A DNA stretch of 64,000 nt from Alphaproteobacteria bacterium (GCA_014237925.1 JABACB010000001.1:101459-165458); one strand, 5' to 3'. Shown: positions 1 to 64,000, counted from the stretch's first letter. The notes: a model not told the origin generated them from the letters alone. Numbers and translations: made by a program.

Positions 1-1563
1 GTCCGAGGCTGCGACGCATCCCTCCAAGTCGTGTCCTTCGCGGCGCGCCTTGTAGAGCGCAACCTCGACGGCATCGATACGGCTCGTCTGTCCGCAACCC
101 AGTCCCAGAGTGGCTTGAGCCCTCGCCTGCGCGAGGGAAGAAGAGGTGTCTCGGTTGACGATGGCAACCGCGTTGGAGCTGATCAAGGAGGCGGACTCGA
201 AGGCAAACAGCAAGGCTGCTCTCTGCGCCTTCGTAGGCTCTTTCGTGCCCTTGTGCGCGATGTCGTCGAGCATGAGCTTCTTGTCGTTCGGCGTTTGCAA
301 GATGCGCAAGTGCTTGCCGAGCGAGCGCACCTCGAAGCTTCCGCCGATGTTGTAGGCGAGGCGAGGGTAGGGTAGCAGCAAGGGGGGGGTGGCTTTCTCC
401 GACATCGTCTCCAAGGCGCCCTCCACGAACGAGGGAGCTGCGACAAGGGTGAAAAATTGCTTTCTCAACGCCTCCAGCAACGCCTTGTCGCAATGGCGGT
501 TGACGGCGACGATCCCGCCGTAAGTGGAGAGACTGTCGCCCTTGTAGGCGAGCATGAAGGCTTGCACAAGGTCGCCCGCGTACGCAAAGCCGCAGAGATT
601 GCCGTGTTTGACGATCGCGCAGGCGGGATCGTCTTGGCGCACGACCGCGCGCGTCGCTTTGTAGGCATCGATCAGGTTGTTGTAGCTGGGGGAGCGACCG
701 CTGAGCGTCGGCGAGGAGGGCTGAAGGTGCGAAGGCGACGCATAGCTTTGCTTGACCTCAAACAGAGCCGCTGCCTGATGAGGATTCTCCCCGTAGCGCA
801 GCTGCAAGGCTTGGTCGGCAAAACTGTTGCGATGGGCTGGAAGGGGGTTGTTCGACACCACCATACCCAGCCAGTCTCCGATCATCATGTCGTTGAGCGC
901 GGTCATATGAAAGACCTTGCTCGCCAGCATTCTCAGCAGCTCTTCGTCCATGCGCTCTTTCATACAGCTCTTGCCGCGGTCGTTCTCGGCAGTGACGATG
1001 GCAGCCACCGTGTCGCAGTCTTGCCGATCGAAGAGCGCGCAGACATGACGATAGTTCTTCGCCGCCGCGCGCAGAAGCGCGATTCCGCCGATGTCGATGT
1101 ACTCGTGCAGCTTGTCGACATCGACAGGAGAGACCGCATCGTCCGAAAGGCTTCGAGACTTGTCGCCGAACGGATAGGGTTGCACAACGACATAGTCGAT
1201 CGGAAAGATCGGATTGCCGTCGGGCAAGCACTCCACCTCCCCGCCGCGTGCGCACAAGATGCCGCCGAGAATGCGCGGGTGTAGCGTCTTCACTTGTCCT
1301 TGCGCGATTTCTCCTACGCCCGTATACTCTGATACCGAGATCGTTTCGATGCCGTGATGTGCTAGCTTCTCTTGCGTGCCTCGTGTCGCCAAAATTCCGA
1401 CACCCTTCTTCTGCAAGGCGCGAGCCAGCACCAAGGACGACTCCGCCTCTTGGAGAGAAAACAACGCGAAGGTTTTGTGTTGTTGGAAGTGTTGCCCTTG
1501 CTTGCGCCGTGTTTTGTCCTTCATTGAAGACACCTCGTCGTGCGTGGCATCTTGCATGGTCAT
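1..1563 (-). CDS. purH: Bifunctional AICAR transformylase / IMP cyclohydrolase PurH; the 3' end runs off the window
   Basis: Absent from the ORF track because there is no stop codon inside the window. My own minus-strand translation from the ATG at ~1563 (preceded by GGAGGAGGG) is open all the way to position 1. It shows an N-terminal MGS-like part (GILATRGT, VKTLHPRILGGIL) and AICARFT motifs (LRYGENPHQ, IVKHGNLCGFA, YGGIVAVN). Confidence 0.85.
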   Translation of the reverse strand, partial: MTMQDATHDEVSSMKDKTRRKQGQHFQQHKTFALFSLQEAESSLVLARALQKKGVGILATRGTQEKLAHHGIETISVSEYTGVGEIAQGQVKTLHPRILGGILCARGGEVECLPDGNPIFPIDYVVVQPYPFGDKSRSLSDDAVSPVDVDKLHEYIDIGGIALLRAAAKNYRHVCALFDRQDCDTVAAIVTAENDRGKSCMKERMDEELLRMLASKVFHMTALNDMMIGDWLGMVVSNNPLPAHRNSFADQALQLRYGENPHQAAALFEVKQSYASPSHLQPSSPTLSGRSPSYNNLIDAYKATRAVVRQDDPACAIVKHGNLCGFAYAGDLVQAFMLAYKGDSLSTYGGIVAVNRHCDKALLEALRKQFFTLVAAPSFVEGALETMSEKATPPLLLPYPRLAYNIGGSFEVRSLGKHLRILQTPNDKKLMLDDIAHKGTKEPTKAQRAALLFAFESASLISSNAVAIVNRDTSSSLAQARAQATLGLGCGQTSRIDAVEVALYKARREGHDLEGCVAASD

Positions 1564-1609
1564 CCCTCCTCCCATTGTTTTTCAACAAGAATTCTTCCCC
1601 AAGCAACCC

Positions 1610-1615
1610 TATAAT
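1610..1615 (+). promoter_or_regulatory. Candidate -10 element (TATAAT) upstream of rpoH
   Basis: Perfect TATAAT about 54 nt upstream of the rpoH ATG, in the purH/rpoH divergent spacer. No convincing -35 was seen. Confidence 0.25.
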
Positions 1616-1668
1616 GACACAGAGTGATGGTTGTGTAAAGCTTTGCGGCTTGGCAGAGAGGTTTTTTT

Positions 1669-2655
1669 ATGTCGAAGACGGGTGCCGTCGTTGCGCGTAG
1701 CCCCTCTTCGCTGAGCGTCAGCGAGGAGGGACTGGAGCATTACCTTGCGGAGGTGCGCAAAGTGCCTCTGCTCGCGCACGAGGAGGAGTACATGCTCGCG
1801 CGACGGTGGATCGATCACAAGGATGTCGAAGCGGCGCATCGCTTGGTGCTGAGCCACCTGCGTCTTGTAGCGAAGATCGCCGCCGGCTATCGCGGCTACG
1901 GCTTGCCTTACGCCGACCTGGTGTCGGAAGGCAATATCGGACTGTTGCAGGCGGTACGGCGTTTCGACCCGGAACGCGGGTTCAGACTGGCGACTTACGC
2001 CATGTGGTGGATCCGAGCCGCCGTGCAGGACTATGTGCTGCGTTCGTGGTCGCTGGTCAAGATCGGAACGACGGCTGCGCAGAAAAAACTCTTTTTCAAC
2101 TTGCGCAAGCTGCGCCAGCAAATGCGCGCCATCGACAGTCAGCAGATCAGTCCCGAAGAGGTTGAAAAAATCGCCGCCGCGCTCGATGTCGACACGCGTG
2201 AAGTCGAGATGATGCACGCAAGACTGTCGTCGCGCGACTTCTCGTTGCAGACGCCGATCGGCGACGACGGCGACGCATGGCAGGAATGGATCGAAGACGA
2301 AAGCGCCGACCACGAGAGCGCTTTCCTCGACGAAGACGAAAAGCGCTACCGCCGTTCGATCTTGGACGAGGCGTTGCAAACGCTGAAGCCGCGCGAGCGC
2401 GACATCTTGTGCGCACGACGTTTGCAAGATCCCGCATCCACTCTGGACGACTTGGGTCGGCGCTATCGCGTCAGCCGCGAGCGCATTCGGCAAATTGAAT
2501 CGTCCGCCTTCGAAAAGCTACGCCTCGCGGTGGCGCAAAAAGAACAGGCGCTTTTGCCGAAGGCCTCTGTTTCTGCTACCTCTGTTTCTGCCACCTCTGT
2601 TTCTGCTGCCCCCGCTCTCCCTTCGACGGAGTGCGGTGAGTCTAGCGTCTCCTGA
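1669..2655 (+). CDS. rpoH: RNA polymerase sigma-32 (heat-shock) factor RpoH
   Basis: Sigma-70 family regions 2-4 (LVSEGNIGLLQAVRRFDPERGFRLATYAMWWIRA). Carries the RpoH box QKKLFFNLRKL. The C-terminal SVSAT x3 comes from a 15-nt array at 2566-2610. Confidence 0.9.
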   Translation: MSKTGAVVARSPSSLSVSEEGLEHYLAEVRKVPLLAHEEEYMLARRWIDHKDVEAAHRLVLSHLRLVAKIAAGYRGYGLPYADLVSEGNIGLLQAVRRFDPERGFRLATYAMWWIRAAVQDYVLRSWSLVKIGTTAAQKKLFFNLRKLRQQMRAIDSQQISPEEVEKIAAALDVDTREVEMMHARLSSRDFSLQTPIGDDGDAWQEWIEDESADHESAFLDEDEKRYRRSILDEALQTLKPRERDILCARRLQDPASTLDDLGRRYRVSRERIRQIESSAFEKLRLAVAQKEQALLPKASVSATSVSATSVSAAPALPSTECGESSVS

Positions 2656-2675
2656 CGCGGCGGCTAGAATTTAGC

Positions 2676-2835
2676 GACTCTTTCAGTGACTCTTTCAGTG
2701 ACTCTTTCAGTAACTCTTGCTCACTCTCTCTTGCTCGCTCTTTCTCGCTTTTTCTCACTCTTTCTCACCCTTCTCTTTTTCGCTCTTGCTCGCTCTTTCT
2801 CACTCTTTCTCACCCTTCTCTTTTTCGCTCTTGTC
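2676..2835. repeat. Composite tandem repeats: 12-nt unit gactctttcagt x3 (2676-2711), then a ~45-54-nt CT-rich unit x2 (~2737-2835)
   Basis: Read directly in the sequence. Lies between the rpoH stop and the 3' end of the convergent ORF 2800-3351. Confidence 0.85.
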
Positions 2836-63255: not shown

Positions 63256-63270
63256 ATAATCATGCTCACG

Positions 63271-63345
63271 CGATCTATGGTCTTGCGATCTATGGTCTTG
63301 CGACGATTGCCTTGCGACGATTGCCATGCGCGACGATTGTCGTGC
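63271..63345. repeat. Arrays in the sctT leader: 15-nt cgatctatggtcttg x2, then ~14-nt cgacgattgcc(t/a)tg x3
   Basis: Read directly in the sequence, between the chaperone stop (63391) and the sctT start (63255). Confidence 0.85.
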
Positions 63346-63390
63346 GTTTGGGCTCGTACTCTTGTGGAGCCTTGATAGCAGTGCTTGCAC

Positions 63391-63870
63391 TCAGATGGCG
63401 AGCGAGCTGTGTCCGGGGCTCTCGTTCTCTGCGTTCTTGTTGCTGGTTTCGCCGAACTCGCCGCGCTCCAGACGGGTCATCCACTCTTCGGTCAGGTTGA
63501 CGAGCGCGCCGATCTTTTTCTCGAAGGGTTCGAATTCGATCTTGTCGGTCGGAATCGGAACGCTCAGCAACAGCATGCCGATCGAGCGGTCGACAACGAT
63601 GCGCACCGGCAGATCCCCAGGCATCACCAAACACTCGGAGAGCAATCCTTCCAAGAGTCGAGCGCGTGCGCTGTCGTCTTTCGGCAGCGCGCACAGCACT
63701 GCATAGGCGTGCAGGTAGGGCTTGTCGGGGTCGGCTTCAAAATCAACGGTGATGCGGTCGTCGAACACCAGCCGTGCCGTGTTGCTCTCGTCCAGATCGA
63801 GCTTGTCGAGCTTTAGCGCCTGACCGAGCTGGCGGAGAAGGTTGCGCGCGTTGTCGGAAGAAGATGACAT
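63391..63870 (-). CDS. CesT/SycE-like class I type III secretion chaperone
   Basis: LKLDKLDLDESNTARLVFDDRITVDFEADPDKPYLHAYAVLCALP...LLEGLLSECL....VVDRSIGMLLLSVPIP...FEPFEKKIGALVNLTEEW fits the class IA chaperone pattern. The product is acidic and 159 aa long. Confidence 0.6.
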   Translation of the reverse strand: MSSSSDNARNLLRQLGQALKLDKLDLDESNTARLVFDDRITVDFEADPDKPYLHAYAVLCALPKDDSARARLLEGLLSECLVMPGDLPVRIVVDRSIGMLLLSVPIPTDKIEFEPFEKKIGALVNLTEEWMTRLERGEFGETSNKNAENESPGHSSLAI

Positions 63871-63892
63871 GGAGCCTCTATAGTGTTGGGGG

Positions 63893-63950
63893 GCAGGGGG
63901 CTAAGACAGGGGGCTAAGACAGGGGGCTAAGGACAGGGGGCTGCGACAGG
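63893..63950. repeat. 13-nt tandem array (cagggggctaaga x~4) upstream of the chaperone gene
   Basis: Read directly in the sequence near the window end. Confidence 0.8.
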
Positions 63951-64000
63951 GACTGGGTGTCGAGGGTTAGCGCGGAGCGGAGGGGGAGCGCGGAAAGTGC

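Follow-up and report, generated by a model that had tools for sequence, protein, structure and literature searches.

The window analysed here, a 64,000-nt stretch of the small genome of an uncultured alphaproteobacterium, is crowded with short tandem arrays that lie both in spacers and in frame inside genes. It is part of contig C111, the largest contig of the draft genome G000, a metagenome-assembled genome (MAG) of 1.97 Mb in 409 contigs with 56% GC, 86% completeness and 3% contamination. The carrier of the arrays is an alphaproteobacterial chromosome (recA, aspS, smc and fabH), whose synteny is conserved in a closed 1.9-Mb genome. We consider it probable, at roughly 70%, that the arrays arise by slippage-based tandem duplication and are filtered by selection, that the intensity of the process is specific to the lineage and is not due to a loss of mismatch repair, and that most arrays are near-neutral passengers. 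The repeats are of a known kind, but their density is unusual and makes this genome an extreme member of that kind.

The existence and density of the arrays, their unit spectrum, the frame filter, the uniqueness of the units, their youth and turnover within the genus, the insertion sites and the repair-gene complement were observed directly. Arrays were called with Tandem Repeats Finder (TRF); rows in the window were taken at a score of at least 30, overlapping rows were merged, and arrays were counted at a score of at least 50. The 138 rows obtained merged to 58 arrays, which occupy 3,567 nt or 5.6% of the 64 kb, whereas ten third-order Markov simulations of the window gave 0 to 2 arrays each. 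A proliferation of arrays across the window had been predicted from its sequence alone (the original prediction), and these counts confirmed it. Every example listed at that time was found within a few bases of its predicted position, and the peptides were read back by translation. The copy numbers on readback were 7 to 8 for PPPSA in RecA, 8 to 9 for TPSQQ in a 298-aa protein, 12 for NPS(H/N) in a DEAD-box helicase and 8 for IPQ(N/D) in a 1265-aa protein. On the other hand, the six copies of EDRRE reported in the helicase were not borne out, the unit being 12 nt long (EDRR) and present in about 10 copies. The description of the arrays as perfect holds for 8 of the 58, which are 100% identical; the others are not, and identity reaches at least 90% in 29 of the 58.

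Application of TRF to the full genome bore out the claim that the process is genome-wide. A total of 1,472 arrays were found, 201 of which are RTX protein repeats with periods of 27, 54, 81 or 108 nt; these were removed from the genome counts where so stated. The 1,271 non-RTX arrays make up 5.0% of the bases. Open reading frames (ORFs) were predicted with our own codon-score caller, which gave 1,571 approximate calls and 80.5% coding DNA. Coding sequences (CDS) contained 885 arrays and non-coding DNA 485, the density per kb being 2.3-fold higher in the latter, and arrays took up 16% of the non-coding bases and 4.8% of the coding bases. In-frame arrays were present in 434 of the 1,436 ORFs of at least 100 codons (approximately 30%), and the genes with young inserts include recA and those for RNase HII, FabH, AspRS, SMC, MutL and RecJ. 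Array identity formed a continuous spectrum from perfect to about 70%; 222 of the 1,472 arrays were perfect (approximately 15%, RTX repeats counted in). The longest non-RTX array in the genome, 3,337 nt in a single TRF array, lies outside the window.

The RTX set comprises 26.7 kb of GGxGxDxLx calcium-binding nonapeptides on contigs C11, C122, C277 and about 90 small contigs. It comes from large RTX proteins whose genes are shattered over many contigs of 0.5 to 1 kb, and RTX repeats are also present in the related genome G003. The 27/54-nt period peak was rejected as part of the trait because these protein repeats are old and of a different nature.

For each unit length, runs with two or more perfect copies were counted separately from TRF. 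In non-coding DNA the numbers were 14 for 10-nt units, 38 for 11 nt, 77 for 12 nt, 46 for 13 nt, 54 for 14 nt, 48 for 15 nt, 17 for 16 nt, 3 for 17 nt and 9 for 18 nt. In CDS there were 233 duplications of 12 nt, 142 of 15 nt, 108 of 9 nt and 21 of 18 nt. A Markov simulation of the whole genome gave 0 or 1 at each of these lengths. Since the non-coding spectrum is sharp and the CDS counts given fall at lengths that keep the frame, the underlying process has a sharply bounded preferred unit of 11 to 16 nt, of which coding regions pass the frame-preserving subset only. Among the TRF arrays, the unit was divisible by three in 823 of the 885 in CDS (93%) versus 235 of the 485 in non-coding DNA (48.5%), which supports the frame-preserving selection proposed in the original prediction. 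The statement that units other than multiples of three occur only outside CDS also holds in the window, where arrays of 13-, 14-, 16- and 17-nt units are intergenic or fall within the first 37 or fewer codons of longest-ORF calls (those at 18053 and 63297).

No motif common to the units was detected; the most frequent 5-mer, CAAGA/TCTTG, occurred in 15% of them, an approximately 3-fold enrichment. A dispersed family of repeat elements (REP, MITE or STRR heptamers) and a recognition motif were both rejected because every array has its own unit and orthologous sites carry unrelated units.

Relatives were represented by six genomes of the same genus, four of the same order and thirty other alphaproteobacteria, 20 to 400 kb being sampled from 22 of these. 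No strain of the same species was found among the contigs searched for the 298-aa protein, the 1265-aa protein had no relative in a scan of metagenomes, and the closest relatives in a scan of JGI metagenomes with SctV were only 56% identical. The best RecA homologues had 94 to 96% core identity, i.e. they belong to other species. Self-BLAST of the assembly gave no near-identical overlaps.

The gene order of the window is conserved in G002, G003 and G004 at approximately 80% nucleotide identity, and BLAST alignments with these sister species break exactly at the arrays. Where arrays could be mapped tightly, the sister species either had no more than one copy or had an unrelated array in that place. 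The window was longer than three sister species by 30 nt in rnhB, and longer than sister species by 26 nt at the fabH array, 81 nt in the dus array region (15307..15396) and 18 nt at the smc array at 44193. An additional 96 nt in the gene of the 1265-aa protein and 92 nt in the spacer before smc were missing from G003 and G004. In these two genomes, the AspRS loop that bears the window's array contained an unrelated 12-nt array. G004 also had an unrelated 12-nt array of 7 copies at the C-terminus of the 298-aa protein, a different 17/34-nt array, variable between its haplotypes, at the leader site 18053, and an unrelated 14-nt array with 4.9 and 6.9 copies in two haplotypes at the spacer site 16699. 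Unrelated 15-nt or 9-nt arrays occupied the site at 2676..2833 in sister species. The 9-nt array at 34094 was the only one with a similar unit in G004, and its copy number differs. The TRF matches at 12055, 44701 and 48227 were rejected as young arrays because they are marginal two-copy similarities of equal length in the sister species.

The near-complete genome G004 has three extra contigs over the recA region, comprising two haplotypes that are 99.4% identical and one that is about 90% identical, which points to strains or species co-occurring in the source sample. Contigs C1 and C4 of G004 were 99.4% identical over 17.7 kb and differed by 7 indels, six of which were at arrays (9, 12, 12, 20, 22 and 28 nt). 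Of the 10 arrays in this stretch, about half had changed, corresponding per array to approximately 80 to 100 times the per-site substitution rate. Furthermore, L254 and L255, which come from two other assemblies, were about 97% identical and showed 13 indels in 14.5 kb, mostly of 8 to 36 nt in a tandem-repeat context; these alter the in-frame lengths of an ATP synthase b-type subunit, a helicase and RecA. Because sister species have single copies or unrelated arrays and strain pairs differ by unit-sized indels, the arrays are young and still turning over, the turnover being seen in sister species. The recent or ongoing expansion that had been proposed is thus supported, and the comparison did not yield arrays that are invariant and degenerate across relatives.

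The density of TRF arrays was 0.75 per kb in the window genome (0.65 without RTX repeats). Within the genus it was 0.14 in G001, approximately 0.34 to 0.37 in G002 to G005 and 0.93 in G006, and three further contigs of the clade (L253 to L255) gave 0.33 to 0.52. The sister family of the same order had 0.05 to 0.18 arrays per kb, and nine other families had 0.017 to 0.22. G034, a genome of another alphaproteobacterial family (approximately 2.5 Mb, 60% GC), was an outlier with 0.5 arrays per kb. In samples of its contig C6 the dominant period was 12 nt and about 11% of the bases were in repeats, units of 180 to 480 nt included. The period spectrum of the repeat-rich genomes was likewise 11 to 16 nt. 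Perfect 11- to 16-nt duplications numbered approximately 35 per 100 kb in the window genome, 7.5 to 25 in the same genus and 10 in G007 of the same order; there were 1.0 to 1.3 per 100 kb in approximately 1.9 Mb of other alphaproteobacterial and type III secretion system (T3SS)-bearing loci, and none in 69 kb of Escherichia coli K-12. The trait is associated with lineage, with a density that differs about 7-fold between members of the genus, and at least one further alphaproteobacterial family shows it as well.

A normal duplication rate combined with relaxed selection could also be considered, whereby the small effective population size of a reduced, probably host-associated genome lets arrays pile up. 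The genome is indeed small (approximately 1.9 Mb) and has a T3SS, recQ, dinB and xni have been lost, the preference for 11 to 16 nt is faintly visible in ordinary bacteria, and the age spectrum from perfect to about 70% identity is as passive accumulation predicts. However, the spacers alone hold approximately 73 perfect 11- to 16-nt duplications per 100 kb of non-coding DNA, whereas the total of at most 1.3 per 100 kb in other genomes would amount in spacers to no more than about 10 per 100 kb if every one of them lay there. In addition, a change in copy number of about half of the arrays at 0.6% divergence is a very high rate, and the similarly small alphaproteobacterial genomes G015, G018, G040 and G029 have 3 to 15 times fewer arrays. 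This explanation is unlikely, and we infer that mutational input is raised beyond what relaxed selection would leave in place.

Most of the in-gene arrays of the window follow the last domain of the protein, as in the sigma factor, the helicase, RecA, SctD and the 298-aa protein. Others are in linkers or coiled coils (SctD aa 102-119, SMC, MCP and the C-terminal half of the MerR-family protein) or at N-termini. Genome-wide, arrays were over-represented in the first and last deciles of ORFs, an excess to which over-long start calls may add at the N-terminal side. Among the residues of array peptides, Q, N, S, K, E, D, P, G and T were in excess, and W, F, Y, C, L, I, V and R were under-represented. 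Alignment to solved structures, a check suggested by the original prediction, placed both inserts so examined in loops: the 18 extra residues of FabH lie in the loop joining the two halves of the thiolase fold, and the 17 extra residues of AspRS lie in a loop of the OB-fold. The three VDACI copies of RNase HII are directly N-terminal to the conserved (I/V)DGN strand with the catalytic Asp (IVDGN in this protein); the unit contains a copy of the IVD of this beta-strand, and the DEDD residues are intact. It is rare for a young repeat to lie against an active-site element in this way. Whereas a short acidic tail is the usual end of RecA, each member of the genus has its own C-terminal extension of this protein, which is rich in Pro, Ala and Ser, adds approximately 40 to 60 residues and has internal repeats of its own; this extension could alter RecA regulation.

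The arrays might instead have a selected function, either as contingency-like switches of copy number in promoters and leaders or as a source of new disordered protein segments such as has been proposed for Borgs. Many genes do have an array upstream, and arrays are present in proteins for secretion, chemotaxis and the envelope (SctD, MCP and the MotB-like protein). The array peptides are of the disorder type, and species repeatedly use the same sites, such as the loop in AspRS, the tail of RecA and the C-terminal end of the 298-aa protein. Such recurrent sites are equally explicable as structurally permissive ones. Divergent, tandem and convergent spacers had 2.04, 2.07 and 2.50 arrays per kb, respectively. 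Since the convergent spacers hold no promoter and yet are the densest, promoter targeting was rejected. Frame-preserving units inside genes cannot turn genes on or off, and about 30% of all genes are affected, housekeeping enzymes included. A selected function thus appears quite unlikely, and the contingency-like variation raised in the original prediction is not supported, given the even densities, the units that keep the frame and the housekeeping nature of the host genes. For most arrays, the part of a near-neutral passenger is more probable than that of a regulatory switch, and single arrays may affect expression or protein behavior.

With regard to the origin of the arrays, the favored reading of slippage filtered by selection can be put as follows. 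An unusually active, genome-wide and sequence-unspecific tandem duplication would yield the arrays, most likely through slipped-strand misalignment that does not depend on RecA and that joins short direct repeats approximately 11 to 16 nt apart when DNA is replicated or resynthesized in repair. The first slip would convert X-Y-X to X-Y-X-Y-X, after which the array would grow and shrink by further slippage and decay by point mutation. Inside genes, selection would let units of 12, 15, 18 or 9 nt survive, mainly in tails, linkers and surface loops and as polar, disorder-type peptides, and spacers would leave the raw 11- to 16-nt spectrum visible. The intensity of the process would be a lineage trait that varies among species.

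We infer the slippage step from the isolated perfect two-copy duplications of 11 to 16 nt in non-coding DNA (n = 93) and from the rnhB site. A partial third copy of at least 3 nt was present in 54% of these duplications, as against approximately 5% expected without microhomology. In G002, the heptamer CATCCAC occurs twice at this site, 15 nt apart, and the window has a 15-nt array that opens with this heptamer, a pattern that fits the conversion of X-Y-X to X-Y-X-Y-X. These data on the birth of arrays favor microhomology-primed slippage and fall short of proof.

The assembly was searched for repair genes by tblastn with E. coli K-12 proteins as queries. MutS, MutL, one UvrD/Rep-type helicase, full-length PolA, RecJ, XseA, RNase HI and DnaQ were present, whereas no convincing match in the assembly was obtained for RecQ, ExoI, ExoX, RNase T, Xni and DinB, nor for TopB, which gave a weak TopA-like match only. 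MutS was full-length and stop-free in G000 and five genus members; in G005 (64% complete) it was broken into two pieces, and only G002 (69% complete) gave no match. The N-terminal ATPase region of MutL was present. A mutator state through loss of mismatch repair, the lead given by the original prediction, was accordingly rejected, both genes being present and uninterrupted. Loss of RecQ as a sufficient cause was also rejected because its absence from the order (all 11 genomes) is shared by the repeat-poor G020, G023 and G040. Loss of ExoI is uninformative, as this gene is missing from 38 of 41 alphaproteobacteria, repeat-poor ones included.

Arrays also occur in or directly beside some of the repair genes, namely those for RecJ, MutL, PolA and DnaQ. 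Three arrays, all in frame, follow the ATPase region that was matched in MutL (C222:6438-6652) and are probably in its linker, RecJ contains three (C333:64106-64586), and a 12-nt array of 6 copies lies just after dnaQ (C222:101201-101272). Two PolA genes that are 75% identical to each other were found at C359:3349-5289 and C376:47942-50836. The short contig C359 with the second polA most likely entered the bin from a sister species, in which case the gene is not a paralogue; the MAG holds a few such co-binned contigs, and the window, on the largest contig, is unaffected.

A one-step duplication of fixed size driven by enzymes rather than by slippage, through staggered nicks 11 to 16 nt apart that are filled in and ligated or through ligation of unprocessed Okazaki flaps, would account for the sharp band of 11 to 16 nt with its cut-off at 17 and for those isolated duplications that have no flanking microhomology. 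It also agrees with the absence of the standalone flap nuclease Xni and of the 3'-5' single-stranded DNA (ssDNA) exonucleases ExoI, ExoX and RNase T, and with a modest enrichment of A and purines on the sense strand: the units are somewhat purine/pyrimidine-asymmetric, and their sense-strand A content was 28.6% versus 21.5% in CDS and 27.5% versus 24.2% in spacers. However, PolA is full-length with all acidic motifs of its 5'-nuclease intact, on which ground flap-nuclease loss was rejected, and the absences of ExoI and RecQ are shared with repeat-poor genomes as described above. There is no common flanking or unit motif, and multi-copy arrays and the unit-sized gains and losses between strains need slippage-type dynamics regardless. 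We regard this explanation as very unlikely. Mis-assembly of a fragmented MAG (409 contigs, 3% contamination and some co-binned contigs) as the source of the arrays or of their copy numbers can practically be dismissed, since arrays are mostly below read length (median 46 nt, 90th percentile 95 nt, more than 150 nt in only 64 of 1,271), do not cluster at contig ends (83 ends within 60 nt of an array versus about 89 by chance), keep reading frames and show the same pattern in more than nine independent assemblies, closed or near-closed genomes included, one of them a one-contig 1.9-Mb genome.

Several points weigh against slippage filtered by selection as a full account. Approximately 39% of the 93 isolated duplications have only 0 to 1 nt of flanking microhomology, and simple microhomology-primed slippage predicts fewer. 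The sharp 11- to 16-nt band with a dip at 10 does not follow from any of the standard slippage models. The gene searches revealed no loss or change to which the raised rate could be attributed. Ongoing copy-number variation was shown only in sister species, and the coding and non-coding counts are approximate, the CDS calls coming from a home-made codon-score caller.

A further and tentative possibility is that a heritable tandem-duplication mutator state with the 11- to 16-nt signature exists in several uncultured lineages, namely in this genus, in weaker form in its sister family and, of independent origin, in the family of G034; it would arise from a specific change in lagging-strand synthesis, in the processing of flaps or ssDNA ends, or in polymerase re-priming. 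If so, the mutator state would continuously seed new disordered segments in essential proteins, and the genus would be a natural comparative system for the gene that sets the rate of short duplications in bacteria.

The arrays of the window are listed in Table 1. Pfam searches confirmed the sigma-70 family factor, DEAD-box helicase, RecA, RNase HII, Dus, AspRS, FabH, the DsbA-like thioredoxin, SMC, MCP, the MerR-family regulator, SctD, MeaB and the CheY-like receiver, and gave no match for the 1265-aa, 298-aa and 280-aa ('sctP') proteins. The array at 28430-28495 had been described as intergenic, which is plausible and not certain: it corresponds to aa 5-25 of the longest cheY-like ORF, the receiver of which begins at aa 34. 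Positions 51373-59195 hold a type III secretion cluster (the SctD cytoplasmic domain, an SctV-like 706-aa protein and others), adjacent to chemotaxis and MotB-like genes.

Table 1. Tandem arrays in the window, with position, strand, unit length, copy number (x) and encoded peptide.
Location	Position	Strand	Array
Sigma-70 family (rpoH-like) gene, C-terminal tail, aa 300-313, after region 4	2564..2607	+	15 nt x2.9, SVSAT
Intergenic complex	2676..2833	.	12 nt x3.6 (2676-2718), then nested 10/35/45-nt CT-rich arrays (2713-2833)
DEAD-box helicase, C-terminal tail, aa 463-510	5504..5649	-	12 nt x12.2, NPS(H/N)
DEAD-box helicase, C-terminal tail, aa 392-430	5742..5861	-	12 nt x10, EDRR/ENGR
Intergenic	7044..7073	.	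13 nt x2.3
RecA, C-terminal extension, aa 358-400, past RecA_C domain (278-332)	8284..8416	+	15 nt x8.9, PPPSA
Intergenic	8476..8528	.	perfect 14 nt x3.8
Intergenic or gene edge	8547..8599	.	14 nt x3.8
Intergenic	12635..12692	.	12 nt x4.8
RNase HII (rnhB), catalytic domain, aa 147-161	13137..13184	-	perfect 15 nt x3.2, VDACI x3
Intergenic	15003..15052	.	13 nt x3.8
dus, N-terminus, aa 3-13 (start codon uncertain)	15059..15094	+	15 nt x2.4
dus, aa 85-114	15307..15396	+	perfect 12 nt x2.4 (SATS) and 9-nt and 18-nt arrays
dus, past Dus domain	16028..16075	+	two 12-nt arrays (x2.2, x2.3), TRF score <50
Intergenic, convergent spacer	16582..16666	.	14 nt x6.1
Intergenic, 189 nt	16699..16887	.	nested 15/73/88-nt periods
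Zn-ribbon protein	17606..17773	-	GGC-rich 36-nt array (PPPASPSS) and 15 nt x3 (ENKAN)
First 37 codons of longest transporter ORF, probably 5' leader	18053..18097	.	perfect 17 nt x2.6
Transporter, N-terminus	18175..18218	+	12 nt x3.7 (LLPS/LVPS); 12 nt longer than in sister species
AspRS, anticodon-binding OB-fold surface loop, aa 62-74	20208..20248	+	18 nt x2.3, DPTGGS x2
1265-aa protein, aa 496-528	24129..24231	-	12 nt x8.6, IPQ(N/D)
298-aa protein, extreme C-terminus	26495..26625	-	15 nt x8.7, 98% identical, TPSQQ
cheY-like gene, upstream or in first 25 codons	28430..28495	.	15 nt x4.4
Intergenic	28529..28601	.	15 nt x4.9
Intergenic	28702..28762	.	14 nt x4.4
Intergenic	30005..30035	.	perfect 16-nt duplication; single copy in G003 and G004
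891-aa protein, C-terminus and just downstream	34094..34165	-	9-nt arrays
Intergenic, purine-rich	38974..39037	.	11/14-nt array
FabH, surface loop between two thiolase-fold halves, aa 178-193	40988..41037	+	12 nt x4.2, (Q/K)EKT
DsbA-like protein, N-terminal to thioredoxin domain	41727..41809	+	12 nt x4.3 (GQAS) and 12 nt x1.9
Intergenic, upstream of smc	42325..42433	.	18 nt x6.1
smc, aa 93-130	42714..42829	+	6 nt x8.5 (poly-Ser) and 12 nt x3.5 (NSNP)
smc, coiled-coil region, aa 484-505	43888..43957	+	12 nt x5.6 (SENA/SEDA)
smc	44193..44227	+	12 nt x2.9 (QTDT)
MCP, aa 39-62	46449..46523	+	15 nt x5 (DARQK)
MCP, aa 198-215	46928..46982	+	perfect 15 nt x3.7 (QAQGE)
MCP, aa 275-294	47157..47219	+	9/18-nt array (GNE/SSE)
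Intergenic	49039..49191	.	37 nt x1.9 and perfect 14-nt duplication
meaB, aa 67-81	50031..50077	-	12 nt x3.9 (TATQ)
Intergenic	50295..50366	.	14-nt arrays
MerR-family gene, C-terminal half	51070..51370	+	12 nt x4.5 (QGGD), 15 nt x2.5, 15 nt x3.4
280-aa ORF ('sctP' of the original prediction, without Pfam match)	52790..52905	-	12 nt x2.2 and 12 nt x7.8 (SKES/ASAK)
sctD, C-terminus, aa 545-565	53081..53146	-	15 nt x4.4 (DQNKT)
sctD, aa 320-335	53773..53822	-	12 nt x4.2 (DSAK)
sctD, linker after cytoplasmic FHA-like domain, aa 102-119	54421..54475	-	15 nt x3.7 (ASV(A/S)D)
155-aa ORF	55065..55112	-	12 nt x3.3 (GRGA)
Gene junction	58568..58603	.	12 nt x3
304-aa gene, 5' end or upstream	63270..63339	.	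perfect 15 nt x2.3 and 14-nt arrays
Intergenic	63894..63951	.	13 nt x4.4

The closest analogues of these arrays are the tandem repeats of Ehrlichia ruminantium and of Borgs. In E. ruminantium (Collins et al. 2005; Frutos et al. 2006; both as summarized in PMC10710844), the process is described as targeted at non-coding regions. The two cases share a small alphaproteobacterial chromosome, hundreds of unrelated tandem arrays, no known enzymatic cause, a lowered coding density and active expansion and contraction between strains, the last seen here in two sister-species strain pairs. In contrast, approximately 60% of the arrays in the present genome are in frame inside genes and affect about 30% of genes, core enzymes included, and the units are confined to 11 to 16 nt (9 to 18 nt in genes). 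The organism is also outside Anaplasmataceae, with 56% GC, a flagellar/chemotaxis system and a T3SS.

Borgs are extrachromosomal elements of Methanoperedens with pervasive tandem repeats (Schoelmerich et al. 2023, PMC9879509). The features in common are repeats in both genes and spacers, units that are divisible by three in ORFs and mostly not between genes, unique units, flanking partial repeats, an A bias (much weaker here), disorder-promoting repeat peptides, an independent origin of arrays at homologous sites, and copy-number variation within populations, or here between sister-species strains. The Borg repeats are essentially perfect and make up 0.6 to 1.0% of the element, being present in 1.6 to 2% of its proteins (PMC9879509). 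When the Borg size thresholds were applied to the arrays of the present genome, 461 arrays remained, covering 2.8% of the bases and 12.7% of ORFs, and only 23 of them were perfect; units were divisible by three in 216 of 227 arrays in ORFs versus 92 of 189 intergenic ones. Borgs are archaeal linear elements with PolB, whereas the chromosome that carries the present repeats is bacterial and relies on Pol III and Pol I for its replication. Compared with the Borg repeats, those of the window genome therefore represent a process of the same kind in an older, steady state, on a bacterial chromosome.

Two further systems invite comparison. Lovett and colleagues reportedly found in E. coli that slipped misalignment at short direct repeats is independent of RecA and depends strongly on the proximity of the repeats. 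Such events are rare in E. coli and are restrained by ExoI, ExoX, ExoVII and RecJ. Duplication or deletion between close short direct repeats and unit-sized gains and losses are common to both organisms, but only RecJ and ExoVII of the four restraining nucleases are retained here, as in most repeat-poor alphaproteobacteria. The phase-variable contingency loci of Haemophilus, Neisseria and Campylobacter have units of 1 to 7 nt that shift the frame or the promoter spacing and are concentrated in surface and restriction-modification genes. They resemble the present arrays in having a copy number hypermutable by slippage and in that some arrays are in leaders or promoters. Unlike them, the units here are 11 to 16 nt long, preserve the frame and are spread across housekeeping genes and spacers that contain terminators only.

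In practice, such arrays make genomes look more divergent than they are, interrupt alignments exactly where they lie and will mislead strain typing and the annotation of these MAGs. For the biology of the group, they bring clearly into view a mutational process that in bacteria normally escapes observation through its rarity, the spacers displaying its raw spectrum and the genes the filter of selection. Because approximately 30% of the proteins tolerate young insertions, the clade is a natural experiment on the robustness of proteins to insertions and on the birth of disordered segments. Furthermore, since array density varies about 7-fold among congeners with conserved gene order, comparative genomics could identify the determinant of short-duplication rates.

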